NCBI GenBank assembly: GCA_035403965.1
Contig: DAONGE010000004.1
Location: 18,306-82,305, forward strand
Length of the DNA: 64,000 nt
Reading direction: 5' to 3'
Source: Candidatus Omnitrophota bacterium
GTDB lineage: Bacteria > Omnitrophota > Gorgyraeia > Tantalellales > Tantalellaceae
The translations under genes were made by a program, and so were the position numbers. The notes under the pieces were generated by a model. The model made no database searches. It saw only the letters and a list, made by a program, of their open reading frames with translations, and was not told the DNA's origin. This document shows positions 5,505 through 58,637 of the stretch, in pieces. The stretch's first letter is position 1; the number at the start of each line of letters is the position of its first letter.

Positions 5505-5834
5505 ATGAATACCGTAATATTACTGACCATATCGAATATATTTATGACATTTGCCTGGTACGGACACCTAAAATACAAATCTTCTCCGCTCGCCCTTGTT
5601 ATACTGGTAAGCTGGCTGATAGCCTTTGTGGAATACTGCTTTCAGGTGCCGGCAAACCGCATCGGACACTCGCAATTCTCAGCCGCACAGCTGAAGACCA
5701 TTCAAGAGGTCATTACTCTGGTGGTTTTTTGCGTGTTCTCTGTCACATATCTGAAAGAAGACCTGCGCTGGAATTATCTGGTTGGCTTCGGGTTCATGAT
5801 CCTCGCAGTGTTTTTTGTTTTTAAAAAATGGTAA
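5505..5834 (+). CDS. small DMT-superfamily membrane protein (DUF486-like)
   Basis: 109 aa with 4 predicted TM helices, immediately downstream of cdaA. Confidence 0.55.
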   Translation: MNTVILLTISNIFMTFAWYGHLKYKSSPLALVILVSWLIAFVEYCFQVPANRIGHSQFSAAQLKTIQEVITLVVFCVFSVTYLKEDLRWNYLVGFGFMILAVFFVFKKW

Positions 5835-6069
5835 CTCCCTCTCTCGTCTGTTCGGAAGTTCTGCGCTCTCAAGAAAAATACCCTGTTATTTTTGATCTCC
5901 AGGCGTTTGATACTTCGCTGAAGCGTAAAATATTTCTATCTTTTGCGGGTATTTTTCTTAAGTGCTCGAACATTCCGAACAGACTAATCTCCGAAAAAGC
6001 GTATTTAAGGTTTACGTATTAACGTGACCTTGCAAATGACGTCACTGCGAGGATCAATAGTCAAAGGTT

Positions 6070-6363
6070 GGCGACGAAGCAATCTTTGGGTAGCGAATAG
6101 ATCATTACGCATAGCTTGCTTCGCTCGCAATGACAGCGAGAGATTTTATTGAAGATGTCGTGCGGGAATCCGAGCATTGGAGAGAAAAGCCCACAATAGA
6201 TAAAAGTAAATTACGCATCTGCGATAGGCGAACGCCGGGAGATTAAAAATAACAGGGCTTTTCTCGAAACGCGCAGGATGACGCACAACATCTAAGGGAT
6301 ATCCGGTAGTATATTTTTTAGAGATTGCTTCGTCGCTTCGCTCCTCGCAATGACAATGATGGA
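6070..6363. repeat. structured intergenic repeat, copy A
   Basis: Conserved ~38-nt motif (AAATAAATTACGCATCNGCGNTANNCAAACGCCGGGAG) at 6203-6241. It is enclosed by an 11-bp stem, 6182-6192/6255-6265. Outer inverted repeat 6070-6085/6322-6336. Confidence 0.6.
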
Positions 6364-6492
6364 TCCCTCTCCTCCCGAGACCACATTCGAAAGAACACAA
6401 ACTTCTCCTTGCGAATCAGGCATGCCCATCATATCCATATAAGCATTACTTACGATTGGACATTTTCCGGAAACATTTGGTATACTTATCAC

Positions 6493-6885
6493 ATGAGTCC
6501 ATTCGATTTTTCCGAAAAAAGGCATTCGGCGCGGCTCGCGCTAAAATGCCGCATATCAGTCCGGATAGAGGGAAAAGATTCCGGGGCAAAAAATTTTTCG
6601 GCCATCGGCAAAAACATAAGTACTGACGGCATTTTATTCGCCTCAAAACAACAACTTACCGCCGGAGACACCATATTGATGACATTGTCCTTTCCCGGGG
6701 AAGAAACAAAAGAAGATCAGCTTTTACTGCGCGGTGCGGTAAAATGGTGCTCGCCTATTTTTGAAGGCACCGTAAAAACCGGTTTTTATGATACCGGGAT
6801 CCGTTTTGTTGATCTGGATCAGGCCAACTTAAAATTCCTTGTAAAATACGTTTGTGGAAATCTTACGGAAGGGATATCAAGGTAG
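6493..6885 (+). CDS. PilZ domain protein (c-di-GMP binding)
   Basis: RxxxR plus D/NxSxxG-like motifs (KRHSARL ... NISTDGILF). Start moved to the internal ATG at 6493, downstream of the repeat element. Confidence 0.6.
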   Translation: MSPFDFSEKRHSARLALKCRISVRIEGKDSGAKNFSAIGKNISTDGILFASKQQLTAGDTILMTLSFPGEETKEDQLLLRGAVKWCSPIFEGTVKTGFYDTGIRFVDLDQANLKFLVKYVCGNLTEGISR

Positions 6886-7889: not shown

Positions 7890-10137
<2,248 letters not shown>

Positions 10138-10712: not shown

Positions 10713-10879
10713 ACACAACAGCGTAAAAATTGTATAATCAAAGTCGTTCTTTTTCAAGAGAATTCTGTTGTCTCCTTTCCGGTAGCAACATATTACCGTC
10801 ACTTTTCGAAATTGCGTATTCTTATCTACGGTAGACGAGCCCTTTTCACAAAGAGAAGTTTGTGTTCTTTCTACCGTGG

Positions 10880-11150
10880 ACGCTCAAAATCCCCGGCGAC
10901 CGAGGACGCAATGTCCGAGGAAGTGCCGAGGCCTCCGGACGAGGCCGGCTCAACTCGCTCAGCGTTCGGCCTCGCTCTCTCCGCTAACGCGGAGATCCGT
11001 GCCCGCATCGGCCTCTCGATGCCCCGTACGAAAGAACATAAACTTCTCCGAAAAAGGAAATCGTATAAACGACAGAACTTCTCGTTTCGCCAAGTCAACC
11101 GAATGAAATATCGCATATATAGCTACGGCTTTTATTGGAGAGCGGGGGGA
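10880..11150. repeat. intergenic mosaic repeat (module 2), shared with 32015-32091
   Basis: GACGCAATGTCYGARGAAGTRCC ... ATAYATAGCTACGGC is shared between the two loci. ORFs 10686..11168 and 10871..11116 inside it are judged spurious. Confidence 0.5.
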
Positions 11151-15949: not shown

Positions 15950-16667
15950 TCTGTCATTCATTTCCGGGCAAAAACGCGCAGCTATCCCGCCCGGGGACGG
16001 CGCGAAGCGACGCAGGAGATCCGAAAGCATATCCCCGATGATTTCAAAAATAACATGTGTATTACTCGAACGATGCATATCAAAATAAAAGTCCCATTTC
16101 GAAAACCTATTACGGCTATCCGGGCTGGGCGAGTACCCTAGCAATTCGAGGCAATAGATAGAAATAAATTATGCATCGGCGCTAATCAAACGCCGGGAGT
16201 ACAAAAATAACACGAAGAATTGCGCGGAACGCAGAACGGCCCGGATAGACGGTATTTGAAGTGGGATAATTACCCGGGCGGAAACGCGCAGCAGTCCCGC
16301 CCGGGGACGGCGCGGAGCGACGCAGGTATTTTGAAAATTTATTTTCGAAATACCGAGGAGCATCGCGCATGCAAACGGTCTCAGTTATATCCCTCTTAGC
16401 CGTTTGCACTACCGCTAAAACAAAAAGCTCGATCATTTCTGTGGTTTGGACCCGGGCGGAAAACGAGCCCCGAAGGGGCGAAGTGTCCCACCCGGGGACG
16501 GCGACGTAGCTGACGCAGGATTTTTGAAAAGTTCTTTTCAAAAATCCGAGGAAGCGTAGTCGCGGGCAAACAGCTTTCTCGGGATATCACCGGGGCTGTT
16601 TGCACAACCACTAAAACAAATCGACCGGGTTTGTTCTGTCTTTCGGTACCGGGCGGAAACGCGCAGC
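15950..16667. repeat. tandem degenerate repeats derived from the tRNA-Arg trailer
   Basis: Three or more copies of a ~50-70-nt unit (CGGGCGGAAACGCGCAGCAGTCCCGCCCGGGGACGGCG...). The unit repeats the sequence immediately 3' of the tRNA. Interspersed variable-stem palindromes. Contains copy C of the hairpin element, with the motif at 16162-16199. Confidence 0.65.
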
Positions 16668-31920: not shown

Positions 31921-32270
31921 TACCTTACGGGGCGAGAAGTGAGAATTTGAGCCTTTAATTTAGCGAAGTTTCCCAGTCAGCGCGGAAACGATCCAAAACA
32001 AAGATGCGGATGGCGACTAAAGACGCAATGTCTGAAGAAGTACCTCGAGCTCCGCCGAGCGGGTTCTCCCATACATAGCTACGGCGGGCATGTCAGATTT
32101 GCCGTTATCCGATTAAAAATAATTTACGCATCAGCGCGAGTCAAACACCGGAAGCTTAGAAATGAAAAGGCGAATCGGATATGCCCGCCGTAGCTATTTC
32201 GCACCTGACACACCTAGAGTCATCCATAATTTAAACATTTGGCATTTCATAGATACGCTGTATAATTGTT
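31921..32270. repeat. mosaic intergenic repeat, copy D (module 2 plus hairpin element)
   Basis: Module 2 at 32015-32091. Hairpin with 18-bp stems 32074-32091/32181-32197 enclosing the conserved motif at 32116-32153. Confidence 0.6.
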
Positions 32271-32276
32271 TCAATC

Positions 32277-32852
32277 ATGGCGGCATTTTTAACATCTTTT
32301 ATTTTTGTTCTTCTCGCGGAGATGGGTGACAAAACCCAGCTCCTCGTTATGGCTTTTGCCGCCAGGTACAGCATCGGGAAAGTGCTTTTGGCTGTTTTTC
32401 TCGCAACGGTCGCGAATCATTCTTTGGCGGTCGTAACGGGACACCTGTTAACAAAGATCATTCCCTTGAACATCGTATCTTTGCTCGCTTCATTATCTTT
32501 TATCATTTTCGGCCTATGGACCTTACGAGAAGAAGAGGCTCATACGGCGGATAAACAGGAAAACCGTTTCGGACCGATACTGACAGTCGGGATAGCGTTC
32601 TTTTTAGCGGAAATGGGCGACAAAACCCAACTCGCGGCGATGAGCCTAGCCGCTACGTACAAAAATATGTTTTTCGTTCTCGCTGGGACTACTTTGGGAA
32701 TGATGGTCGCAAACGCTATCGGTCTTGCCGTCGGAATGCTACTGCATAAACACGTTCCCGAGAAATCCATCAAATGGATCGCAGCGATAGTGTTCATTTT
32801 GTTCGGTCTATTCGGGATATTTGAGTATATCCGCACAACATTTTTTATCTAG
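32277..32852 (+). CDS. UPF0016/GDT1 (TMEM165)-family cation transporter
   Basis: Two E-x-G-D-K-T repeats (LAEMGDKTQL twice) across 6 TM helices. Confidence 0.8.
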   Translation: MAAFLTSFIFVLLAEMGDKTQLLVMAFAARYSIGKVLLAVFLATVANHSLAVVTGHLLTKIIPLNIVSLLASLSFIIFGLWTLREEEAHTADKQENRFGPILTVGIAFFLAEMGDKTQLAAMSLAATYKNMFFVLAGTTLGMMVANAIGLAVGMLLHKHVPEKSIKWIAAIVFILFGLFGIFEYIRTTFFI

Positions 32853-47737: not shown

Positions 47738-49030
47738 TTAAACATCGAACTCTTCCCGATCCTGCAATATTTGCACGTTCTTAAACAATCTCGGGTATTG
47801 CCCAGACTCAAAAGTGTGAATCGGAATCAACTTGCCCGGGTTTAACGCTCCGGCAAAAACCTTTAAATCCTGTATTGTGGCATGACCGCTTGTATGAACA
47901 GTTTCAATATCCAATCCTTTTTGAGCGATAAAATCCTTAAATTTATCAGTCAAATATCCTTCCCACATTGAATAAATAATCTTTGCTCTCTCTATACCCT
48001 TGATATTCTTCACGAGTATGGGGAAAATAGAATTATCCCGTGCAAGCATCAAGACCTTATCCTTGATCGCATTAATCTCATCAATCTCAATCTTCCGAGT
48101 GTTGTAAGCATAGAGAAGTTTTACCGAGGCATTCTGAGCCAAAGAATCGGCGTGGCTCTTCAAAAATTTAACTCTGATATTTCGCCAGTTGAATTGAGGG
48201 ATATGTTTTGATACTTTCCTCAAACAATCAAGAATATACGCTGTATAAATATCAATCACGAATACATGATTTGTTTTAAGACAAGCCTTATACGCTGAAA
48301 CGATTCGGTCAATATTCTGAGATGATGCAAATAAAAACTTTATATTAGGGGTCGTCTTTAAAACTTTTTCCATGCAAGCTTGCACCGCCTGCTCATCTTT
48401 GAATAATTGTTCTCCTCTACCAATCATCGAACCTTCCAATAGCAAACAATCAATACCTTTCGGCGGCTTAGACACCATGCGCCTATAAAGCTCGCTTTTT
48501 CTTCCATGCCCCCTAAAATCTCCCGAATAAAAAACTTTCTTCCCATCAGCTTTAATCATGAAAGCGAGAGCGTCAAAAGCGGAGTGATCTACCAGATAAG
48601 GCGTGATTTCAAAATCACCAATGACCAGCTTCTTGCGCTTGTCTATAATTCTGGTATTTATTTTGCCGATTTTGTGCGGGGTAAATATATCCGACACCTC
48701 AATCAACGTCTTTGCCCCCTCGCTCATATATATAGGTATGCCGGGATGCACATACCGAAGCAATCCATAGTGATCCATGTGAGAATGCGATATGAGGATG
48801 GCGTCAACCGACCTCTCCTCATCTTTATAGAGGCCGCTCACGCTGGGAAGAATTTTTAATCTCCTCAATTCTTCCGGAGATTTACCAATCAAAGCCCTTG
48901 AATCAAACGATTCTTTTTGGGCGTTAACAAGCGGCAGTCCGAAATCGATCACGATCCGGTTTTTCTCCGTGAATACCTCTACGCAGGTCCCGCCAATTTC
49001 GGCTGTGCCTCTATGGATAATTAGCTTCAT
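47738..49030 (-). CDS. MBL-fold/beta-CASP nuclease (RNase J-like)
   Basis: 430 aa. HSHMDHYG motif and the C-terminal beta-CASP motif (HTSGHA). Last gene of a six-gene operon. Confidence 0.75.
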   Translation of the reverse strand: MKLIIHRGTAEIGGTCVEVFTEKNRIVIDFGLPLVNAQKESFDSRALIGKSPEELRRLKILPSVSGLYKDEERSVDAILISHSHMDHYGLLRYVHPGIPIYMSEGAKTLIEVSDIFTPHKIGKINTRIIDKRKKLVIGDFEITPYLVDHSAFDALAFMIKADGKKVFYSGDFRGHGRKSELYRRMVSKPPKGIDCLLLEGSMIGRGEQLFKDEQAVQACMEKVLKTTPNIKFLFASSQNIDRIVSAYKACLKTNHVFVIDIYTAYILDCLRKVSKHIPQFNWRNIRVKFLKSHADSLAQNASVKLLYAYNTRKIEIDEINAIKDKVLMLARDNSIFPILVKNIKGIERAKIIYSMWEGYLTDKFKDFIAQKGLDIETVHTSGHATIQDLKVFAGALNPGKLIPIHTFESGQYPRLFKNVQILQDREEFDV

Positions 49031-49866
49031 ATTAAATTATTAAACCTGATTTCATTCTTTATGTGTAAAACCTTAATATCAGGATGCTTCGCCTTAAGCT
49101 CGGCTATGCTTTTCTCCGCAAGACCGGAATATCCACCAACCACAACTATCCCGAGCACCCCTTCCACGATTTCGATTTTCAATCCACTCGGCATGAGTCC
49201 CAGTCCCTGCTTCTGAATGAAATTCAATTCGTAACTCTTTTTATATTGGGGAAAATTTCTTGTGATACGCTCAACGTACCCTTTGAGCTGTTGAAAAACG
49301 TCCTCTCGTAATTCCGGATTATTGCCAAGCTTCACCTCTATGACGCAAAATTGGTATTTCCCCGGCTCTGCCTGCTTGAGTCCCAGCAAGTCCATTTTGG
49401 TATCGTGATCACGATCAACAACCTGTCTGTCGATAACTATTAAATCTTCCCGGCCTACGTTATCCGTCAAAAGCATTTGCTCAAAAACAATCTCTTCTTG
49501 AAACTGAACAGCCTTGACCTTCTGCCCCATGGACGCCAAATTCCTTGAGCTAAAAAGCGGATGCAACTTCTTACTAGGTAAAATAAAAACAGCGTAATCC
49601 TTAACAATCGCTGGCGAAAAACGATTAATAATTGAATCATCCACAAATTTGCGGTGTATTTTTATCTCATAGACTTTTTGGCCAGCCCTATAAGATATTT
49701 TCCCTATACTATTGCCTTTATAATATAGATTTAAGTAGTCATCTCGAATCTGTAGCCCATATTCAAAACCGGACTCCTTAATTTTATCAATTAGGAAAAC
49801 GAAATCATCCCTGACAGCATCGTATGTTACGTCTGATAAATATCGACTGATTACGGGCTTGCTCAT
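49027..49866 (-). CDS. hypothetical protein with a PD-(D/E)xK nuclease-like C-terminal domain
   Basis: E...IVID...CVIEVKLG pattern. Overlaps both neighbours by 4 nt. Confidence 0.5.
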   Translation of the reverse strand: MSKPVISRYLSDVTYDAVRDDFVFLIDKIKESGFEYGLQIRDDYLNLYYKGNSIGKISYRAGQKVYEIKIHRKFVDDSIINRFSPAIVKDYAVFILPSKKLHPLFSSRNLASMGQKVKAVQFQEEIVFEQMLLTDNVGREDLIVIDRQVVDRDHDTKMDLLGLKQAEPGKYQFCVIEVKLGNNPELREDVFQQLKGYVERITRNFPQYKKSYELNFIQKQGLGLMPSGLKIEIVEGVLGIVVVGGYSGLAEKSIAELKAKHPDIKVLHIKNEIRFNNLI

Positions 49867-50954
49867 CGTCCCCCCTTAGGAAGCCCCTTTGCCAGAGCTT
49901 GAACTGATGCGCTAGCGTGCCTCAACAGGTTTTTTCTGTTAAATGTAATAAAGTCCGGGTGAGTTGAGAGTCGATACTGCTTCGATGCGTTATTCTCTAC
50001 AAACTTCTTGGCATCCTTACCCAGCAAACTCCCCTCAAGCGGTTTCCTAACGTGATCAAATATTTGATATTTACCCGCATCAACCTTCTTGGTAAGCCAA
50101 CCACCTTTTCCTTTCTTAAGCTCAACCAGCAATTCGATAAATAGAGTAAATGGCTTATCCGGCATTTTAATTTTATGCCCGTTTACCTCAAGGTCATTAC
50201 TCCGCTTCATTGGAGCGGTTCCCGGGATATGGATTTTATCGTAACATTTGTAGTCGAAATCCTTATAATCCTTCGCCTGTTTTTTAGTCAGAGCCGTAGC
50301 CCCACCCTCAGGCATAAATTCCTTAATGAGATCCTCAATCGACAATTTAAATGTTTTTAAATCGAGCGCCGTAGCAATGGGAACCGTGACTATCTGGCAT
50401 TTGCTCAAACCCCAGTTTAATAAAATATCCTCTATCTTCGTGAAAGGAGTAAAAACAACGAGAACCTTGTCATCTTTGCAAATGTCCTTTAACCCGACGA
50501 ATTTGACCAGCTTGCCGCCCCCAATCTTCGGCACAAAAACAAACCCAACCCGAAAACTATCGTAGAGCTTATACCCTACATAAAAATACCCTTCGGGGAT
50601 TTCTTGAAACTTTCCCTCGATCTTATTAACCGTCCGAATTTTCTCAAACAAGACCGGTATTGAAAGCTGATAACGCCGCAGATCCGCTTCTGTTACCTCA
50701 ATAGGCGCACTATCCGCTGACTCCACCGAGTATGCGTAAAATCGACTTCCAACCTTCTTGATCCTTCGCTCGTTACCATTATCCCCCAACGCCAACGAAT
50801 AATACGGCTCTTTCATATAGTCATACTTCATTCGGTCTAAACATTTTTGCTTGGTCAAAAAATTGAAATCGGTCTTTGAAATACGCACCAGCTCGCTCTC
50901 GGCAAACGACGCTGTGGGAAAAGCCTCAAGATTTTTTAATATGAAGTTTATCAC
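49863..50954 (-). CDS. hypothetical protein (363 aa), no recognisable domain
   Basis: Long ORF translationally coupled (ATGA overlaps) within the operon. Confidence 0.5.
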   Translation of the reverse strand: MINFILKNLEAFPTASFAESELVRISKTDFNFLTKQKCLDRMKYDYMKEPYYSLALGDNGNERRIKKVGSRFYAYSVESADSAPIEVTEADLRRYQLSIPVLFEKIRTVNKIEGKFQEIPEGYFYVGYKLYDSFRVGFVFVPKIGGGKLVKFVGLKDICKDDKVLVVFTPFTKIEDILLNWGLSKCQIVTVPIATALDLKTFKLSIEDLIKEFMPEGGATALTKKQAKDYKDFDYKCYDKIHIPGTAPMKRSNDLEVNGHKIKMPDKPFTLFIELLVELKKGKGGWLTKKVDAGKYQIFDHVRKPLEGSLLGKDAKKFVENNASKQYRLSTHPDFITFNRKNLLRHASASVQALAKGLPKGGR

Positions 50955-52057
50955 GTTAAAAGCACCCCATTGTCCCGCAGATACGTCTCAATGATCCCCT
51001 TCTCCGCTTTTTCGGGTAATTTCGTGTTCTCCGGCGGCTTGATCTCAACAGTTATTGACTTGGGCTTCTTACCGCCACGCTTAATGTAAAACCTTAATTT
51101 CGCTGAAACATATTCAGCGTCCTGCATGGATATGTTCAAGTCCGAGAACGCCTGCCGCACATCGCCGCAGTTAATCGTCACCTTAATGATCTTTGTGCCT
51201 CTGCACTTTACCTTCACCTCGGTTAAATCCACTGACTCGACATCATTATTCCCGGTATAGCTGAAAGTGCCGTTCTTAATGGGATCGAGAACAACCAAGG
51301 TGTTATTGAAAGTCGCCTCCGGCACCTGATCCATGCCAAGGATTGCGCTTCCGAATATCTCAATATACTTCTTTTTGTCCGCCTCGCTCCAGCCGCCAGC
51401 ATTAACACTTAGCACGCAATTCCTCGTGTCAAAAACAAGCATATCCTCTCTGGCCGGACGATAAGATTGGATATCGACTTTCCCATCATTAAAGATCAAG
51501 TGCGTTTTCATATAGTCGCCGTGGGCGATTAAAATGACGTGCTTGCCATCGTGCGTCCTGTATCGGATAGCGCAGTTCTCGCTCTTGCCGGTATCCTTAA
51601 AATGTTGCTCGATGGCCGTCTTTAACTGAGCGACACGATCCTCGGCGAAGTTACAGTTGTTATGATCGAATTTGTGGTGGCTTAATTTTTCGGAATAGAC
51701 AACATATAGGTAGAAGTCGAAGGCGAGTGAGAATGCTTCCTCGCTATGCAGAAAAACCCGCATGGCGGTTGTTTCCGACGGCTCATCATCTTGAGTGGTT
51801 ATGCTATATTGACGTTTCGCCTGTTCAAGATATCCTCTTGCCCGATCAGCGATATCGTTAATGCACTGCAACTCCTCCTCAACATAGGATCGTTTCCCAT
51901 CATCGGTGATGCCGTCCAAAAAATCGTGGATATTATTCCGGTCAAAAACAAAACCATCGGGAACCGGAACATTGCGCTTACTAAAATACGCCTTGAGTAG
52001 GTCGTTATTAACTCCCGTGACAAATTTTTCTAGTTTAAACGACCTATGCTTTGCCAT
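50951..52057 (-). CDS. hypothetical protein (368 aa), no recognisable domain
   Basis: Long ORF coupled within the operon. Confidence 0.5.
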   Translation of the reverse strand: MAKHRSFKLEKFVTGVNNDLLKAYFSKRNVPVPDGFVFDRNNIHDFLDGITDDGKRSYVEEELQCINDIADRARGYLEQAKRQYSITTQDDEPSETTAMRVFLHSEEAFSLAFDFYLYVVYSEKLSHHKFDHNNCNFAEDRVAQLKTAIEQHFKDTGKSENCAIRYRTHDGKHVILIAHGDYMKTHLIFNDGKVDIQSYRPAREDMLVFDTRNCVLSVNAGGWSEADKKKYIEIFGSAILGMDQVPEATFNNTLVVLDPIKNGTFSYTGNNDVESVDLTEVKVKCRGTKIIKVTINCGDVRQAFSDLNISMQDAEYVSAKLRFYIKRGGKKPKSITVEIKPPENTKLPEKAEKGIIETYLRDNGVLLT

Positions 52058-52065
52058 CTAACGCC

Positions 52066-53013
52066 TCATATTTTTAATGCCTTAATGTGCTTCTTCAGGG
52101 CATTGTCGAGCTTAATCATTGCATCAATCATATCGTCCTGCAATCTACCCCATTTATCTGGGTTATTGAGTCCGGCATAATCAAATCGCTTGCTGATCCT
52201 GCAAGCTCTTCGATCCTCCAGTCTGTCCCAGTTAAGTTTTTCACCAAACTCTTTATCAATCTCTGCACGATGAGAAACAAGTTCATCAAAAATGCGCTTG
52301 TTCTCTTCGTCAGACTCCTTGCCTCGATCGATATACAACTCTGCTTGCCCGTATTTATCAGTAACTGCGTAATTTAACCCCAATCCCCTAACGCCTGAAC
52401 TGGTTCCAATCCAGTTCGCAATTCCGGGTGATATGCTAGAGTGCAGATTTGTTTTCTTCTTGCTCTTCTCAAGCAATGACTTCCAAAACTCATAACGCTG
52501 ACTATCACGTTCAGCAATTTCTTTCTTTTCATCCCCAACAATTTTTGTCTTTTCGCTAGGGCCCGTCACTATGGTAAACTTTGCCGCTGGCTCTGAGTTA
52601 CCAATCTTGTATGCCTCGACCTGCACAAGATAAAACTTCACGCCGCTCCCGGTTTCATTAAGCCACTCGATGGCTCGCATGTGTTCAGCTCGAGGATTAC
52701 TTGAAACCCAAATAGCAGTTTTTGCATCAAGATTTGAAATATAGGTCAGAATCTGGCCAAGATGTCCATGGTCTGTTTTTTCGAGTTGGTTCTCGATCAA
52801 TACTTTTTGCCCAGAACTATCTTCGGCAATTATGTCCGCTGAAAACGAACCAACACTCTTCTCTTTTTCGTCAGCGGTTAACTTAAGATCAAGCTCTTCG
52901 CCGAGAACTTCCAAGTTTTCAAATAACCAACAGGTAAAATCTTTCGCTTCTTTTTTCCAGACATCACGCAATGGAACACGTTCCATTCTTCCGACCATAT
53001 TGCCACCTCCCAC
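52066..53013 (-). CDS. DUF4268-like protein with an N-terminal PD-(D/E)xK nuclease domain
   Basis: ADIIAEDSSGQKVLIENQLEKTDHGHLGQILTY matches the D...ExQ/K nuclease core typical of this family. Confidence 0.55.
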   Translation of the reverse strand: MGGGNMVGRMERVPLRDVWKKEAKDFTCWLFENLEVLGEELDLKLTADEKEKSVGSFSADIIAEDSSGQKVLIENQLEKTDHGHLGQILTYISNLDAKTAIWVSSNPRAEHMRAIEWLNETGSGVKFYLVQVEAYKIGNSEPAAKFTIVTGPSEKTKIVGDEKKEIAERDSQRYEFWKSLLEKSKKKTNLHSSISPGIANWIGTSSGVRGLGLNYAVTDKYGQAELYIDRGKESDEENKRIFDELVSHRAEIDKEFGEKLNWDRLEDRRACRISKRFDYAGLNNPDKWGRLQDDMIDAMIKLDNALKKHIKALKI

Positions 53014-53026
53014 TGAGCGTTATAAA

Positions 53027-53257
53027 TTAATGTTTTCTATCTTTGGGCGGACACGGATCCTTGCCAAAGCTATCCTTATCCTGAATCTTGCCATCACGCC
53101 CATGGATCACGAGCTCAGACTGCTGATGTTTCGCAATCTGCCTTCCGGCATTCTCAGCGGCGTTCTTTGTGCGATGCTCCGATGTTAGCTTTGAATTACC
53201 TTCACCACGAACACCCCAGCCAGCATCCGTCTTTACCACATGCTGATTCTTACCCAT
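53027..53257 (-). CDS. DUF2188-family small protein
   Basis: HVVKTDAGWGVRGEGNSK ... ELVIHGRDGKIQDKDSFGKDPCPP matches the DUF2188 pattern. AGGAGGTG RBS before the ATG at 53257. First gene of the operon. Confidence 0.65.
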   Translation of the reverse strand: MGKNQHVVKTDAGWGVRGEGNSKLTSEHRTKNAAENAGRQIAKHQQSELVIHGRDGKIQDKDSFGKDPCPPKDRKH

Positions 53258-53379
53258 ACCGCACCTCCTGCGTTTGCCAGTAAATAAAAAAACCTCCGCC
53301 AAGTGACAATAATAGCACTAGACGAAGGTTTTGCTTTTTTAACGTCCGGGATTTATTCCTTCTAACTCGGGACACTATA

Positions 53380-53455
53380 ATTTTACATAATAGTAGCTGT
53401 TTTGTCAATTCATAAATATAAGCAAATGGACAATTAAGGATATTAGTATTATAAT
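53380..53455. promoter_or_regulatory. divergent sigma70-type promoters
   Basis: Plus strand: -35 TGGACA (53427-53432), 17-bp spacer, -10 TATAAT (53450-53455), feeding the 53497 gene. Minus strand: -35 TTGACA (complement of 53403-53408), 17-bp spacer, -10 TAAAAT (complement of 53380-53385), feeding the DUF2188 operon. Confidence 0.55.
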
Positions 53456-53496
53456 AAACAAATTACCGTTTGACTAGTATTTTTTGAGGTGCTTGC

Positions 53497-54969
53497 ATGA
53501 AAACAATGGAAATATGGGCAGATAGCTTTCATGAAGGGGAATGGTTTGTTGCCAACATTGCCCCATTCTGTAAAAGCCAGAAGATTGACTATATTTATGG
53601 CTTTATCCCTAGCCACACCTTACAGATAGCTGACTCTGTTAATGTGAACTTTACAGTCTTTGGTAGCTATAAATCATGGGAAAACTTACCAGCCAAAATT
53701 GAAAAATTATTGGACTATGGTAAACCCGATATCATTATTTACGATCGGGATTCAGATACAGTTATTTTGGCAATCGAAGAAACAGCGGCCGTCCCTACTG
53801 GAAATCAGGCCCTACAAAGATGTGAGAGGATTTTTGGAAGCGCCTATCTCAAAACTCCTTTTTCCTACCTACTCCCTGAATATGGCATCCATACTGATGG
53901 ACAAAATAGAAGAACCAGTATTTGGCCAACTTTGTTGGCTCTCAAGCTATCCATTCAATTTGGAGTGCCGTCCGTTTCATTTATGTATTCGGATTCCGAT
54001 AATCCCGAGGATTATCACAAAGGCACTGGCCTTAAATCATTATTTGAATATTCATACTTGCAAATAAAAAAGCACCTTAACCTTCTAAGCGAGAATGAAA
54101 AGGAACGCCTCAAAAAAGTTCTTAGTGACCAAATAGGTCGAATGTGTACTTTTATTGTTGATCAATACGCAAATATAATTCATTACTTACCAAGCGTGGA
54201 ACAATTAAAAAATCATGAATTCGTCCATGCGTTAGCCCAGAAGATCTTAGATAAAAGCAATTCTGAAAATTTAAATCTAGACACTTTCTTAAATTGGCCT
54301 TGTAAAAAAGATATTGATGGATTATCCCCCCTGCTCGGCTATATAAACAAAGACTCTTTCCTTTCCGGAATTGATACCGCTATAGAAAACAATAACGGGT
54401 ACGTTATCTCTCAAGGAGTTGGAAGCAAACCACAAAGCAAAGAAAGTATTGATGAGTGGCTTTTATCACAAGCCAAGCAATCTAAAAAAATAAATATTGA
54501 TTATTTAAGTCCTGTTAAGTCATTCTTGAAAACTGAAAATGGAAATTACCATATTACAACGTCAAAAAATATTACTTACTTCCTTGATAATATTTTACAT
54601 ATCGACACGGCATTCCACGATGCCTTTCCAAAAAGAAACTTTAAGCCAAGCGACCTACTCAACAACCATAAAAACCTACCGGTGTTCTTATACATTTCGA
54701 ATTCGTTGAAACCAAACCGTATCTTCGGAGATCCCTTTACTGGCCAATTCGCAACATTCTCAAATCTTTTTTGCTTTACATGTTCTTACAGAAGATACCG
54801 ATCTTCAATTATTTATCTACCCTATGTTTCGGCGGGGTGTTTTTATGATAACTCCAATACTTTAGTCCAAAATAAAGGGCTATCGATTTATCTATTATTA
54901 GCAGATTTAATAATTTGTAATAACGGGTATGTTATTTCAATGATGGAGAAAGGCAAGCTCTATGCGTAA
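53497..54969 (+). CDS. putative restriction endonuclease, large ORF (490 aa)
   Basis: AT-rich gene convergent with two DNA methyltransferases. PD-(D/E)xK-like segment DIIIYDRDSDTVILAIEET. No other recognisable homology. Confidence 0.5.
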   Translation: MKTMEIWADSFHEGEWFVANIAPFCKSQKIDYIYGFIPSHTLQIADSVNVNFTVFGSYKSWENLPAKIEKLLDYGKPDIIIYDRDSDTVILAIEETAAVPTGNQALQRCERIFGSAYLKTPFSYLLPEYGIHTDGQNRRTSIWPTLLALKLSIQFGVPSVSFMYSDSDNPEDYHKGTGLKSLFEYSYLQIKKHLNLLSENEKERLKKVLSDQIGRMCTFIVDQYANIIHYLPSVEQLKNHEFVHALAQKILDKSNSENLNLDTFLNWPCKKDIDGLSPLLGYINKDSFLSGIDTAIENNNGYVISQGVGSKPQSKESIDEWLLSQAKQSKKINIDYLSPVKSFLKTENGNYHITTSKNITYFLDNILHIDTAFHDAFPKRNFKPSDLLNNHKNLPVFLYISNSLKPNRIFGDPFTGQFATFSNLFCFTCSYRRYRSSIIYLPYVSAGCFYDNSNTLVQNKGLSIYLLLADLIICNNGYVISMMEKGKLYA

Positions 54970-55567
54970 TAATCAAATAATATATTCAATATCCGAAGAA
55001 ATCGTGCGCTTCACATTTGAAGTCCACGTAAAACGAAGCGCTCCGGAGTGGAATATTTGTTTTACAAATCCAACAGCGGGTCCATGGAAAACAATTACTT
55101 ATGAGACGCCGGATAGCTCTATAAAAATTGGTCGATACGAAAGAGAAGAACAACGTCCCGATCTAATTCTTCTAAATAATAGTAAATCGGTTTGTTTAAT
55201 AGTTGAGGCTAAGGATGAGTTCAGCAAAATATCTTCGATGGATCAAATAAATAAATCTTTTAAGGTTTTTAAAAAAGAGGTTAAACGATTTCAGTCCTGC
55301 ACAAACCTGACTAATTACTTACGAAATAAGCTTTGTTTTATCGATGGTTTTTTGTGGTATTCATCGGACAAAAAATCGGCGGATATTTTTGCGGAATCTT
55401 ATTACAAAGAAACAAAAAGCGTCAACCCTCTTGTCTGCATTCTGATCTACAAACTTCCTGACAACTCCCTCGCTTGCGGTGGTTCATTGTTTTTTGCTCC
55501 AAACACAGACAAGAGCGATCACATCATCTCTTCCTTTCAGGAATTAATGCTAAAAAGGCTCAGTTGA
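54962..55567 (+). CDS. PD-(D/E)xK nuclease-like protein (second endonuclease ORF or subunit)
   Basis: RPDLILLNN ... VCLIVEAKDE is a classic PD..(D/E)xK pattern. Overlaps the upstream ORF by 8 nt in another frame. Confidence 0.5.
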   Translation: MRNNQIIYSISEEIVRFTFEVHVKRSAPEWNICFTNPTAGPWKTITYETPDSSIKIGRYEREEQRPDLILLNNSKSVCLIVEAKDEFSKISSMDQINKSFKVFKKEVKRFQSCTNLTNYLRNKLCFIDGFLWYSSDKKSADIFAESYYKETKSVNPLVCILIYKLPDNSLACGGSLFFAPNTDKSDHIISSFQELMLKRLS

Positions 55568-57417
55568 TTATCCGCTCTTAATTGATAAAGTTTCCCTTTT
55601 TTCTCTGCAACATTTTTTAACACATCAAGAATTTCTACAATTTCCGGAGCACGACTAAAATCATAATTATCTAAAACGTTCTTTACTATTTCCCACCCAT
55701 CACAGGATCCCTTTTGCAAGCGATCCTTAACTATAGCCTCAATGTCATTTTGAACCGGCGTCGTCTTTTCGTAAGTGGGAAGATACAATAATCGTGCCTC
55801 TTTTAATTCATTAAAATTCTCTTTCAGAAACTCTTCGGCATAATACAAATGATCGCAAGATAGTTGTTTTTTAAGAACGACGCCCACAATCACTCTGATT
55901 GCATGCGGCTTATAAATAACGCCTTCCCTTGCGCCCGCCATATTTCCGAACATTTCTTTCAATAAATCATTAAATTCTTTTTGGGACAACTTATTGCGCT
56001 GGCATTCACTAACCTTCTTAAACGTTACATAAAAATCTCCTAGATAACTCCCTTGGGGTGAAAATCGTGCCTTTGCAGGGATAACCGCAGGTAATGTCAG
56101 ACATATATCTTCAAAATTTAGTGAGGCCTGTTCCGAGGCTAAAAGCAACGAATGCCACGCATCAATAACTAAGTGGTTAAATGTAAAAGTTACACATCCA
56201 TTAAAACAGAGACTATTAACGGCTTTTTTTATACCATCGACCAATTCGTTTTTATAAATATCCCACGATTTATTCCGAGTTTTACTATCTGAAACTACTA
56301 TTTCTTTTTTATAATTTGGTTCTTTTTTTAACCAAGCGTTCCAGATAGCTGAAAATTCAAGGTAAGGAACACTGTCTCCATAAGGTGGGTCAGCGAAAAT
56401 ATATCCTATTTTCTTCTCAGATATCCTCTCTCCAACAGCATCTATCCCATCGGAATATATATATGTTTTAGTCCCTTCCTTGAGCAACACATTTATTCGA
56501 GCCAATGCATCCATTGTTTTTTTGAAGCGACTTTCAAACGCAACGAAAGGATTAGTTTCTAAATGAATAGCGGGAATCCAAAAGCCGGGAACAGACCACG
56601 CAGGTCCTCCCGTAGTTAAATCATTACGATAGGCAATAAGACGGCTACATTGTGTTGCTGTAGCAGTAAGATTAAGCAAAAAAATATTTCTTATAGTTTC
56701 GTCTTTAATAGCATGGATTTTATTTGCCATCTTCGACAAAACAGTGTATGCCCTAGGTGTATAAAATTTACGCAACGTCGTATCTTGATAACTTAATATC
56801 CTTTTGTTTACTATAAACCTCACATCGTAGATTTGCCCGATCTCGTCTTTTTTGTTAGCCTGAACCGTCTGTTGCTCAATATTCTTTTTATTGTTGATAT
56901 CGAGCTTTGATGTTAACAGAACCTTGATTACGTCAGATCCACTTATGGTGCCTAAATTTGCATTGTTTGCGGTTGAACACTGCGGACAAATATATTTTTT
57001 CCCTTTCTTTTTAACTCCCTTAATCGAATAAACATTTTCGCATTTTTGACATTTAAGACACACCTCATGGACGCAATACTTTACCATCCCGTGTTCAGTT
57101 TCATATGGCTGAGCATACTCCTTAAATAAATTCTTGAGGTTCTCATGCTCATCAATTATTTTGCTCATTATTACTTTTGTTGTTGAAACATTTCCGATTA
57201 AACCAGAAATTGGGTTGATATCAATTCCGATACTATTAATACCTAGTTTTGCTGATTCGATATTAGTAACACAGCTTCCGCAGAATGGATCTAATACATA
57301 AGCGTTTTCCAACGCATATTTTTTTATAAATGACGCCACAACATTATGGGGTTTTCTAGCCCAGTATTTGTGGATTAAATATTCAGAAGGATGCGTTTTG
57401 GCAACGTAAACTTTCAT
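55537..57417 (-). CDS. DNA methyltransferase (N6-adenine/N4-cytosine, DPPY type) with a zinc-ribbon insert
   Basis: Motif I LDPFCGSC, motif IV IFADPPYGD, and C-x2-C...C-x2-C between them. 626 aa. Confidence 0.75.
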   Translation of the reverse strand: MKVYVAKTHPSEYLIHKYWARKPHNVVASFIKKYALENAYVLDPFCGSCVTNIESAKLGINSIGIDINPISGLIGNVSTTKVIMSKIIDEHENLKNLFKEYAQPYETEHGMVKYCVHEVCLKCQKCENVYSIKGVKKKGKKYICPQCSTANNANLGTISGSDVIKVLLTSKLDINNKKNIEQQTVQANKKDEIGQIYDVRFIVNKRILSYQDTTLRKFYTPRAYTVLSKMANKIHAIKDETIRNIFLLNLTATATQCSRLIAYRNDLTTGGPAWSVPGFWIPAIHLETNPFVAFESRFKKTMDALARINVLLKEGTKTYIYSDGIDAVGERISEKKIGYIFADPPYGDSVPYLEFSAIWNAWLKKEPNYKKEIVVSDSKTRNKSWDIYKNELVDGIKKAVNSLCFNGCVTFTFNHLVIDAWHSLLLASEQASLNFEDICLTLPAVIPAKARFSPQGSYLGDFYVTFKKVSECQRNKLSQKEFNDLLKEMFGNMAGAREGVIYKPHAIRVIVGVVLKKQLSCDHLYYAEEFLKENFNELKEARLLYLPTYEKTTPVQNDIEAIVKDRLQKGSCDGWEIVKNVLDNYDFSRAPEIVEILDVLKNVAEKKGKLYQLRADNQLSLFSINS

Positions 57418-58637
57418 TTTTTCTTCTCAAATGTAAGTATAAAATCAGAAAGAACAATCCCGACCTTATCACCCTCTCTTCGTTGACTGGCAACCCAAGA
57501 AGCTTCGGTAAATTTAGGTCTTCTGATCGCAATATTAATCAATTCAAGATCTATATCCCGTAAACAATCCAACAATAAACGAGTGGTTGGAATGTGTTTC
57601 CCCCTTAATCGAGTATCCCCGATCATCAAAGAAAAATAAGTTTTCTTATTAATTTGAGAGGAAAGCGCTCTAATGCTATCCGCCATATCATCAACATATT
57701 TATGAACATTCTCTTCTTTCCCGATCTTGAAGAACTCCCTAACTTCGTTTTTTGATAATTCCTTATTCGAAATGCCAAGCCAAGGCAACTCTAGCGAAAA
57801 TATCGTACTAAATTTATACACATTAAAATACGGCGGATGGCATATTATAAGTTTTGGATTAATTTCCTTGAAATTCACATGACGCACATCCTCTCTTATA
57901 AATCGAGGCGAAGCAAAATTTTCCGGGAGAGCAGAAACTGCCTTTATGATTTTTTCGGCACTTTTGTTAAATTCTATAATGGGTTCGGATTGGGCAGACT
58001 TAACATCCAGAAATAAACGACCTTGCAAAGACGTTGCCTTTGATACTTTTCTTATAATTGAAATAAAAATACAATCAAATACTCGTCTAGTAATTTCGTC
58101 ATCAATATCATTAATTAAGCTCTTAATACGTTGTAAATTCTTAAATGTTTGAGGCAAATACCAATGCTCTATTCTGGACTCATCAAACGGAATTTTCAGA
58201 TCATAGTTTTTAGATGACAATTTTTTGTATTTCTCATTTAAATTACTTAATGTTTGCTTAAGTCGACTTCCTTTCACGTATTGACATTTGACATTAACCA
58301 ACAACTCGCTCAAAACGCTTACATCTGAACATACCACCTTACGATCCATCAATAAACACTCAAGAGCTGTGGTTCCACTACCACACATAGGGTCAAAAAC
58401 CATATCACCTATCTTTGTATATCTTGAAATTAAGCCCCTAGCTACGGGTGGAGGGAATTTTCCGAAAAACCTAAATATGGAATGAGTGAGATAGGCTAAT
58501 TTAATCGAAGAATGGGGTATATCCCAGACATCCGTTATACTGCTATAATCTTCCAATTTAGAATCTCTAAGCAGTTCTTTTTGATAATCCAGAGATATAG
58601 GATCCGTTGATATAACAATTTCGGGATACGTATTCAT
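57414..58637 (-). CDS. DNA methyltransferase (second MTase of the R-M module)
   Basis: Motif I VFDPMCGSGTT and motif IV ICHPPYFN. Overlaps the downstream MTase by 4 nt. Own promoter-like TTGAAA/TAAAAT at ~58665-58700 on the minus strand. Confidence 0.75.
   Translation of the reverse strand: MNTYPEIVISTDPISLDYQKELLRDSKLEDYSSITDVWDIPHSSIKLAYLTHSIFRFFGKFPPPVARGLISRYTKIGDMVFDPMCGSGTTALECLLMDRKVVCSDVSVLSELLVNVKCQYVKGSRLKQTLSNLNEKYKKLSSKNYDLKIPFDESRIEHWYLPQTFKNLQRIKSLINDIDDEITRRVFDCIFISIIRKVSKATSLQGRLFLDVKSAQSEPIIEFNKSAEKIIKAVSALPENFASPRFIREDVRHVNFKEINPKLIICHPPYFNVYKFSTIFSLELPWLGISNKELSKNEVREFFKIGKEENVHKYVDDMADSIRALSSQINKKTYFSLMIGDTRLRGKHIPTTRLLLDCLRDIDLELINIAIRRPKFTEASWVASQRREGDKVGIVLSDFILTFEKKK

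Follow-up and report, generated by a model that had tools for sequence, protein, structure and literature searches.

Within a 64-kb stretch of the genome of a Candidatus Omnitrophota bacterium (hereafter the window), one conserved sequence recurs between genes inside hairpins whose stems differ from copy to copy but stay complementary, raising the question of what kind of element keeps its centre and its pairing while its ends drift. A first-pass annotation, made from the letters of the DNA only, listed three copies, A (6182–6265), B (16114–16250) and C (32074–32197), and took them for a structured RNA or a protein-recognised DNA hairpin. Reading the sequence confirmed all three at these positions, but the window holds four, the one missed being copy D at 5838–5992 on the minus strand. 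Together they belong to an undescribed, abundant and structurally unusual family of ~135–155-nt intergenic hairpin repeats in an uncultured Candidatus Omnitrophota bacterium. The DNA-hairpin half of the earlier proposal is favoured by what follows and the RNA half is not: most likely the family is repeat DNA, selfish or tolerated, and not an RNA gene.

Copies in the window and beyond it

Copy A, which represents the A-type of the subfamilies described below, occupies 6147–6299 on the plus strand and was delimited by a covariance model, R1 (157 bits, E = 1.5e-35), by its sequence and by its fold. It has an outer helix (6153–6164/6282–6293) with one A:C mismatch, an internal loop in which CCGAGCA (6170–6176) faces CGCGCAGGA (6270–6278), an inner helix (6182–6192/6255–6265) whose strands are perfect complements, and a 62-nt centre (6193–6254), and its arms recur at at least seven other loci. 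Copy D, a D-type copy, came to light when the intergenic region between DMT_6 and PilZ was aligned with two other assemblies (nhmmer E = 2.5e-16; R1 142 bits). It begins 12 nt past the DMT_6 stop codon and only ~150 nt from copy A, and its 38-nt inverted repeat is 82% complementary, the arms at 5846–5883/5947–5984 enclosing a centre at 5884–5946 on the minus strand.

Copy B (B-type; 16106–16258, plus strand; R1 133 bits, with support from sequence and fold) has its outer helix at 16114–16125/16239–16248, its inner helix at 16141–16148/16213–16223 and its centre at 16151–16212, and carries the loop motif as CGAGTAC (16130–16136) and CGCAGAA (16230–16236); arms of this type occur at three further loci. 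Copy C (C-type; 32069–32203, plus strand; R1 86 bits, again with sequence and fold) lacks the internal-loop module and consists of an outer helix (32074–32091/32181–32197) and a centre (32106–32167) bordered by an inner helix, gatttgcc/ggcgaatc; nine other C-type copies are known, with compensatory changes among them. The outer helices of B and C are complementary on reading and paired in the folds, and copies A, B and C fold with z-scores of −3.8, −4.5 and −6.9 relative to shuffled sequence. A hidden Markov model (HMM) built from the four centres and R1 run with its filters off agree on exactly four copies in the 64 kb.

The shared motif was thus real, but the conserved centre is ~62 nt long, not the ~38 nt originally given. 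Copies A and B fit the degenerate motif without a mismatch, and a slightly relaxed form matches A, B and C, with none expected from 100 shuffles. All copies in the window are intergenic, and two lie near tRNA genes (C ~200 nt from tRNA-Asp and B ~410 nt from tRNA-Arg), both as first described. Only two bases, one each, separate the window from the assemblies L001 and L002, and both fall inside the element, at 5964, in the CGAG(C/T)AC loop motif of copy D, and at 6243, in copy A's centre, the variant there being the A-type consensus; either copies have exchanged sequence by gene conversion or the repeats were mis-assembled.

The first-pass annotation had named a search for further copies as a test of its own claim, and nhmmer, the covariance model and metagenome contigs all supplied them. 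Scanning metagenome contigs with the motif yielded 38 stretches from three Joint Genome Institute (JGI) metagenomes, the source metagenomes being 3300010352, 3300025858 and 3300009694, and nhmmer gave 76 matches in 425 kb (the window plus the fetched loci), of which ~41–43 are distinct, ~40 of them beyond the window. These fetched loci (L005–L042) probably come from the same organism as the window, which we assume because contigs 100% identical to it are present, one from each, in two of the three metagenomes. Contigs from these two metagenomes, and from others, are identical to the window across 6.5 kb including copy C. The enolase and GDT1 proteins match a 'MAG TPA: Candidatus Omnitrophota bacterium' entry with 100% identity. 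One contig, Ga0209099_1000269 (L049), carries an identical copy C yet was missed by the metagenome scan, so the copy counts are lower bounds.

To date the family is known from a single Omnitrophota lineage. GTDB species genomes and viral contigs gave no exact match to the degenerate motif, and BLAST of positions 5836–6354 against plasmids and phages matched only a neighbouring REP-like unit (a unit resembling repetitive extragenic palindromes, REPs), which is described in the last section. A full-text literature search for the core sequence returned unrelated matches only, and no GTDB relatives were found through the PfkB kinase. Several fetched contigs start or end within or very near a copy, as is expected where assemblers stop at repeats. 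Omnitrophota are uncultured and their genomes are metagenome assemblies, which an abundant ~150-nt repeat at many contig ends probably fragments.

By their arms, the copies divide into at least six subfamilies, with types A, B, C, D and E each at several loci and types F, G and H each represented by a single example. The arms of a given type recur at many unrelated loci, with identities of 0.90–0.97 within types A, D and E and 0.83–0.94 within type B, while identity between types is 0.77 in the centre and 0.49 in the arms. The stems are therefore not private to each copy, as they had seemed when only A, B and C were compared, these three being members of three subfamilies. The related argument, that unconserved terminal inverted repeats (TIRs) speak against a MITE (miniature inverted-repeat transposable element), likewise fails within a subfamily, where arms are 90–97% conserved across loci.

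A covarying stem around a fixed centre and loop

From the outside inwards, elements of types A, B, D, E, F and G consist of an outer helix of 12–20 bp, an internal-loop module, an inner helix of 8–13 bp and the 62-nt centre, and complementarity ends within 1–3 nt of the arm ends. The module reads 5' ..C-GA-GY-A-YY-GGA.. opposite ..GA-RG-M-RC-GCA-G.. on the 3' side. Its internal loop is asymmetric, 5'-GA facing 5'-GCA (..CGAGYAY.. opposite ..RCGCAGRA..), and its bases, GAG on the 5' side with C-CA--A on the 3' side, do not vary among the 27 aligned copies, the intervening G being nearly invariant. Types C and H have no such module. The centre, ..GAT(A/T)AAAA(A/G)TA(A/T)(A/T)TTACGCATCNGCGCGAGTCAAACGCCGGGAGATCA(A/G)AAAT(G/A)A(A/C)A in consensus, is non-palindromic and common to all subfamilies. 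The spacers reported between stem and motif (10/13, 36/39 and ~24/27 nt) were counted correctly, but they are not unpaired, as they hold the second helix and the conserved internal loop.

Covariation was assessed on 27 distinct copies from six subfamilies, for which RNAalifold gave 25 pairs, 22 of them with compensatory changes. Of the cells, 94% were paired, against 65.8% in shuffles and 30–45% when the register was slid, and the covariation score was 0.771, against 0.270 in shuffles (0 of 500 reached the observed value) and 0.11–0.16 in slid registers. The pairing of a conserved centre with covarying stems is thus better supported than had been claimed from three copies. Compensatory change is also seen within types, from atAgct/agcTat to atGgct/agcCat and from ggCggg/cccGcc to ggTggg/cccAcc in type C, and from aaTgcc/ggcAtt to aaCgcc/ggcGtt in type E. 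The two short helices of the loop module covary as well (GU/AC with GC/GC; CU/AG with CC/GG and UU/AA). A kink-turn or a sarcin-ricin loop was considered for the module, but it is better fitted by a Watson-Crick register in which GY/RC and YY/RR pairs covary. All of this covariation is equally expected for a DNA hairpin and for an RNA.

Mismatches in the stems carry a strand signature. When single-step departures from the consensus Watson-Crick pair of each subfamily were counted, G:T mismatches (30 events) exceeded A:C mismatches (11 events; p = 0.004), whereas a first, crude count that reached past the helices had found no bias (102 against 86). The orientation of the copies is unrelated to GC skew (21:19), which makes a replication-linked mutation bias an unlikely source of the excess. 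One strand therefore appears to fold alone, and it is folding of the forward strand that seems to matter. The data fit a forward strand folded as single-stranded DNA or as RNA alike and cannot tell the two apart. In L033, two C-type copies (2300–2361 and 9589–9650) depart from the consensus centre by three CG-to-CA changes (ACGC to ACAC, GCGC to GCAC and ACGCC to ACACC), a pattern suggestive of methylated-cytosine deamination on the opposite strand.

Orientation is also random with respect to the nearest open reading frames (ORFs), with 13 copies opposed to both neighbours, 10 aligned with both, 8 between divergent and 4 between convergent ORFs. A crude ORF call placed 33 of 43 copies between ORFs and flagged the other 10 as within one; we take these 10 to reflect spurious ORFs called across repeat-filled intergenic DNA. 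The elements contain no conserved ORF, an ATG being present in the C and E types only. A small-protein reading, based on GGGAG followed by ATG, was rejected because types A, B and D have ATA at that place. Outside the arms no conserved promoter or terminator was found, and the flanks of different copies are unrelated, so that they share neither.

Many copies are damaged or recombined. Some have a replaced left arm, there are orphan arms and a solo right arm, and one chimera joins a D-type left arm to a G-type right arm; copies also cluster with one another and with REP-like units in mosaic intergenic tracts. In the window, the fragment at 11026–11129 (plus strand), recognised by its sequence match to the left flanks of L042, L019 and L021 and by an arm motif mapping to 11120, comprises a ~90-nt module that usually stands 5' of C-type copies, followed by a cut-off C-type left arm, atatagctacggc (11117–11129). 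It has neither centre nor right arm, and its region is repeated in the fetched loci. At L027 8150–8210, a solo C-type right arm, atgcccaccgtagctat, is fused directly to the module that normally lies 5' of the left arm; the left arm and centre have apparently been deleted, and the junction may be an excision-like footprint. In their random orientation, unrelated flanks, decay products and mosaics, the copies behave like selfish or tolerated repeats and unlike a gene.

A tolerated repeat, an RNA or a host site

The family is a kind of bacterial intergenic hairpin repeat, and its nearest known counterparts are REPINs (paired inverted REPs that form a hairpin) and palindromic MITEs such as ERIC and Correia. 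REPINs commonly carry compensatory changes, insert beside or into each other, leave no target-site duplication and have been proposed to be recognised as single strands (PMC3116915). Like them and their REP-associated tyrosine transposase (RAYT) system, the present elements are hairpins of ~100–150 nt with two inverted arms and a spacer, present in tens to hundreds of intergenic copies, in several flavours per genome, with compensatory changes, clusters, singlet remnants and no target-site duplication; the two inverted units with their spacer fold as in a REPIN. What differs is that the ends of a REPIN (the REP 16-mers) are invariant and its spacer variable, whereas here the centre and loop are invariant and the ends vary. 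A REP unit, moreover, is a palindrome of 20–40 bp that bears an unpaired tag, GTAG or CGTC, at one end (PMC3733652), while the arms here are ~45 nt long, are neither short palindromes nor self-palindromic, and end in GAAGATG.., TCCGCC.., GGCTAT.., AATGCC.. or ATAGCT.., with no GTAG or CGTC tag, and no RAYT was found in the 64 kb or in the locus fragments.

With MITEs (ERIC/IRU, Correia/NEMIS, RUP, bcr1 and Nezha) the family shares small size (135–155 nt, within the 50–500 bp of that class), a non-coding, multi-copy and mostly intergenic character, occurrence in either orientation, TIRs conserved within each subfamily (0.83–0.97) and the presence of subfamilies, truncations and chimeras; Correia elements even have a functional central motif, a site for integration host factor (IHF) (PMC10969869). 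Unlike MITEs, it shows no target-site duplication and no parent insertion sequence identified in the window or the fetched loci, has no similarity to plasmid and phage collections except through the neighbouring REP-like unit, and has no terminal sequence common to its subfamilies that a single DDE transposase could bind. We have therefore filed it as neither REPIN nor MITE, given the missing GTAG- or CGTC-tagged short palindrome, target-site duplication and identified transposase and the focus of conservation on the centre. Bacterial interspersed mosaic elements (BIMEs), including the REP-IHF-REP form (RIP) of enterobacteria, are similar in their mosaic intergenic arrays, alternating orientation and non-palindromic centre between inverted units, but they belong to another phylum and have other sequences, and the ~45-nt arms here form two helices with a fixed internal loop; IHF binding would be assumed for the present family by analogy. 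Integron attC sites resemble it in being recognised as folded single strands, with structure and a few unpaired bases conserved while stems vary. They differ in that the apical region, conserved here, is variable in attC, and in that our elements have no R and L boxes (R''/L''...L'/R', GTTRRRY, absent from the consensus), no cassette array, a random orientation and, in scans of the window, no integron integrase nearby.

With confidence about evenly balanced, we favour a non-autonomous hairpin repeat, REPIN- or MITE-like, that spreads or persists in folded single-stranded form and is recognised through its conserved centre and loop. Such an element would multiply or persist as a folded strand, most economically read as DNA, as in REPINs and IS200/IS605-type elements, and a protein supplied in trans would bind the invariant centre and internal loop; under recognition of this kind, the helices would need only to pair and so would be free to drift by compensatory change. 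Single copies would not be maintained by the host but would decay, truncate and recombine. The family inverts the usual pattern of mobile DNA: its centre and one internal loop stay constant and its ends change by compensation. Should a cognate protein exist, the family would offer a clean natural system for the recognition of a hairpin by structure rather than sequence; if this is only decaying selfish DNA, it adds one more repeat family, useful mainly as a marker for strain typing and assembly.

Several observations weigh against this account. Conservation is the reverse of that in REPINs and MITEs, with the centre kept across subfamilies and the ends not, and the copies are 3–10% diverged, which gives no indication of a very recent burst. 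An RNA would account equally well for the G:T excess and the invariant internal loop, and the origin of L005–L042 in the same genome as the window is assumed rather than proven. The case for mobility comes from the distribution of the copies, since neither a target-site duplication nor an empty site was obtained. No consistent direct repeat was found in the flanks of B, C and D types, a TA standing beside some C-type ends, not all. The empty-site comparison failed for want of close relatives: contigs of the enolase relatives (89% and 82% identical) have no copy in 12–13 kb but end before the site of copies D and A, the next GDT1 relative is only 69% identical, and all assemblies of the window organism are identical (100%) at copy C. 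No transposase, RAYT or integrase was found among the ORFs of the window by Pfam, NCBIfam and PADLOC, and no multi-copy ORF family that could be a transposase candidate stood out in the fetched loci. Pairs of C-type arm motifs spaced wider than one element were also mapped and two were inspected; that in L006 lies in or beside two giant ORFs, and that in L027, 204 nt apart, is a mosaic of repeat modules. Cleavage sites like those of IS608 (TTAC/TCAA) were considered in the centre and rejected, TCAA being absent from A-type copies.

Unlikely, though to be taken seriously, is a new class of structure-recognised element or RNA, in which the 62-nt apical domain and the invariant 2x3 loop (GA/GCA) would be the ligand of a dedicated protein acting on the folded forward strand, any complementary stems being sufficient, so far in one Omnitrophota lineage. 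It could take the form either of a single-stranded DNA hairpin transposon unrelated to REP/RAYT or of an RNA, such as a component of a multi-copy ribonucleoprotein or a retro-mobile element. A structured non-coding RNA of a more ordinary kind, transcribed from the forward strand by read-through or from flanking promoters, is also rather improbable; it might serve as a protein-binding or processing signal, as a stabiliser or destabiliser of mRNA, or as a small RNA that RNase III or RNase E cuts free. It would account for the strong covariation in all four helical segments, the invariant non-Watson-Crick internal loop, the excess of G:U-type over A:C mismatches (30 against 11), the preference of R1 for the forward strand by ~130 bits and the sequence TTATTTTT after E-, F- and G-type copies, and for REP, ERIC and Correia repeats a role in transcripts is known (PMC10969869, PMC3733652). 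The Rfam scan proposed in the first-pass annotation, however, matched no family in the element regions: at gathering thresholds the whole window gave five tRNAs only, and at E ≤ 5 the regions 5800–6400 and 32000–32280 gave nothing. The random orientation to both neighbours, with copies also in divergent promoter regions, the unrelated flanks, which lack a conserved promoter or terminator, and the truncated, chimeric and orphan forms speak against it too, and near-perfect duplexes of 35–45 bp would be substrates of RNase III rather than stable RNAs.

Quite unlikely is a DNA site used by the host, modelled on the IHF-binding centres of E. coli RIP/BIME-1 and of Correia elements, in which the double-stranded centre would by analogy bind a nucleoid-associated or architectural protein like IHF or HU and the inverted repeats would aid cruciform formation or bending. 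The IHF consensus is WATCAANNNNTTR, and the asymmetric conserved centre between inverted repeats offers an A/T-rich stretch followed by (A/T/G)TCAAAC, the D-type reading TATCAAACGCCTG being near that consensus. Mosaic clusters with REP-like units also recall BIMEs (PMC2817692). The match to IHF is nevertheless partial, the A-type having GGCGAAC and the spacing from the A/T tract being off, and a double-stranded site leaves unexplained both the strand-asymmetric G:T excess and the invariant unpaired loop bases. We consider it very unlikely that the variable stems are insertion targets, a small mobile centre having entered the loops of unrelated hairpins such as REPs or terminators, so that the stems would not reflect covariation at all. 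Copy A does sit in a REP-like palindrome's loop, and another organism has that palindrome uninterrupted; loop insertions are present in small REP-like hairpins of L025 and L026, and clusters of REPINs arise when they insert into ones already there (PMC3116915). Yet a loop motif placed between two variable helices and common to six subfamilies would need an implausible series of identical nestings, the helices of different types look homologous and related by stepwise compensation (F against G in the outer helix, ACGTCC/GGACGT and ACAGCC/GGCTGT; A against D in the inner helix), complementarity stops within 1–3 nt of the arm ends, and neither nhmmer nor R1 found the centre alone or in a hairpin outside the family.

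Least probable of all is an outward promoter of the kind known in Correia, predicted from sequence, in which the reverse strand of the centre would drive transcription through the left arm and on into adjacent DNA. By eye, the reverse strand has a sigma-70-like match in types C, E, B and D (TTGACT-17 nt-TATTTT in C and E), the 1-nt insertion of the D-type falls in the spacer (17 to 18 nt), and several MITEs are known to carry promoters (PMC10969869). In the abundant A-type, however, the −35 hexamer is destroyed (TTCGCC). The spacer shows as much conservation as the hexamers, a constraint that a promoter does not impose, the copies lie in random orientation to the downstream gene, and a consensus scan of 5800–6500 gave no such site, although the sigma-70 consensus may not be that of Omnitrophota. 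A sigma-54 or sigma-70 promoter on the forward strand was also tried by eye and did not fit.

Neighbouring repeats and other features of the window

Around copy A, an outer inverted repeat was correctly noted in the first pass (6071–6085/6322–6336, 15 nt, 100% complementary), and it is not part of the hairpin element. It consists of two halves of another, widespread repeat, GTCA(C/T)TGCGAGG...GAAGCAATC and GATTGCTTCG...CCTCGCAATGAC. The left half (6041–6085, minus strand), found through inverted repeats, is a REP-like unit reading GTCACTGCGAGGA...GCGACGAAGCAATCT, and the right half (6322–6356, plus strand) is a TGTC-tagged REP-like unit, AGATTGCTTCGTCGCTTCGCTCCTCGCAATGACA. Positions 6323–6354 match a plasmid of Methylosinus trichosporium OB3b exactly over 32 nt, and in that plasmid both halves of the palindrome form an uninterrupted hairpin; the unit also shares ~94–97% identity with a Methylocystis plasmid and with a contig labelled 'Bacteriophage sp.' from human gut. 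Such near-identity across phyla is striking. In its TGTC/CGTC head and the A-T start of its stem, and in the CCA tail of the Methylosinus copy, the unit resembles the CGTC-tagged REP superfamily (PMC3733652). It follows A-type copies at ~30 nt in other loci, making the A-type copy and the unit a recurrent composite, and the same palindrome family is seen at 6113–6146 in the window and at 2455–2535 in L043.

Small hairpins of the form stem-loop-stem+TGACA, such as tccccgatagaagcattcggggatgaca and ttcccgctaaatgcgtgcgggaatgaca, stand after E-type copies, in the right flanks of those copies in L013, L027 and L039. In L025 (8950–9035), L026 (5060–5145) and L036, a hairpin of the TGACA type carries a ~58-nt insertion in its loop that includes the C-type arm motif, and in this genome hairpin loops seem to be frequent sites of insertion.

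Two further tracts of the window are repetitive. Between tRNA-Thr and a GGDEF gene lies a composite repeat of ~290 nt (10842–11129), with up to 25 BLAST matches in the fetched loci, which contains the module usually found 5' of C-type copies (gaaagaacayaaacttctc...ttctcgtttcgccaag). Between copy B and tRNA-Arg are two diverged units of ~185 nt (16260–16667), which Tandem Repeats Finder did not call; each opens with a GC-rich hairpin, cccgggcgg...ccgcccggg, like the sequence abutting the 3' end of tRNA-Arg, and integration at the tRNA may have left them behind.

Elsewhere, three ORFs at 49027–52057 have no family match and are followed by a defence island at 52066–58637, whose 54–58 kb portion is low in GC (0.35–0.36). 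The island includes a candidate PDC-S11 protein, a gene resembling a type II nicking endonuclease (53497–54969) and two type II DNA methyltransferases (55537–57417 and 57414–58637).

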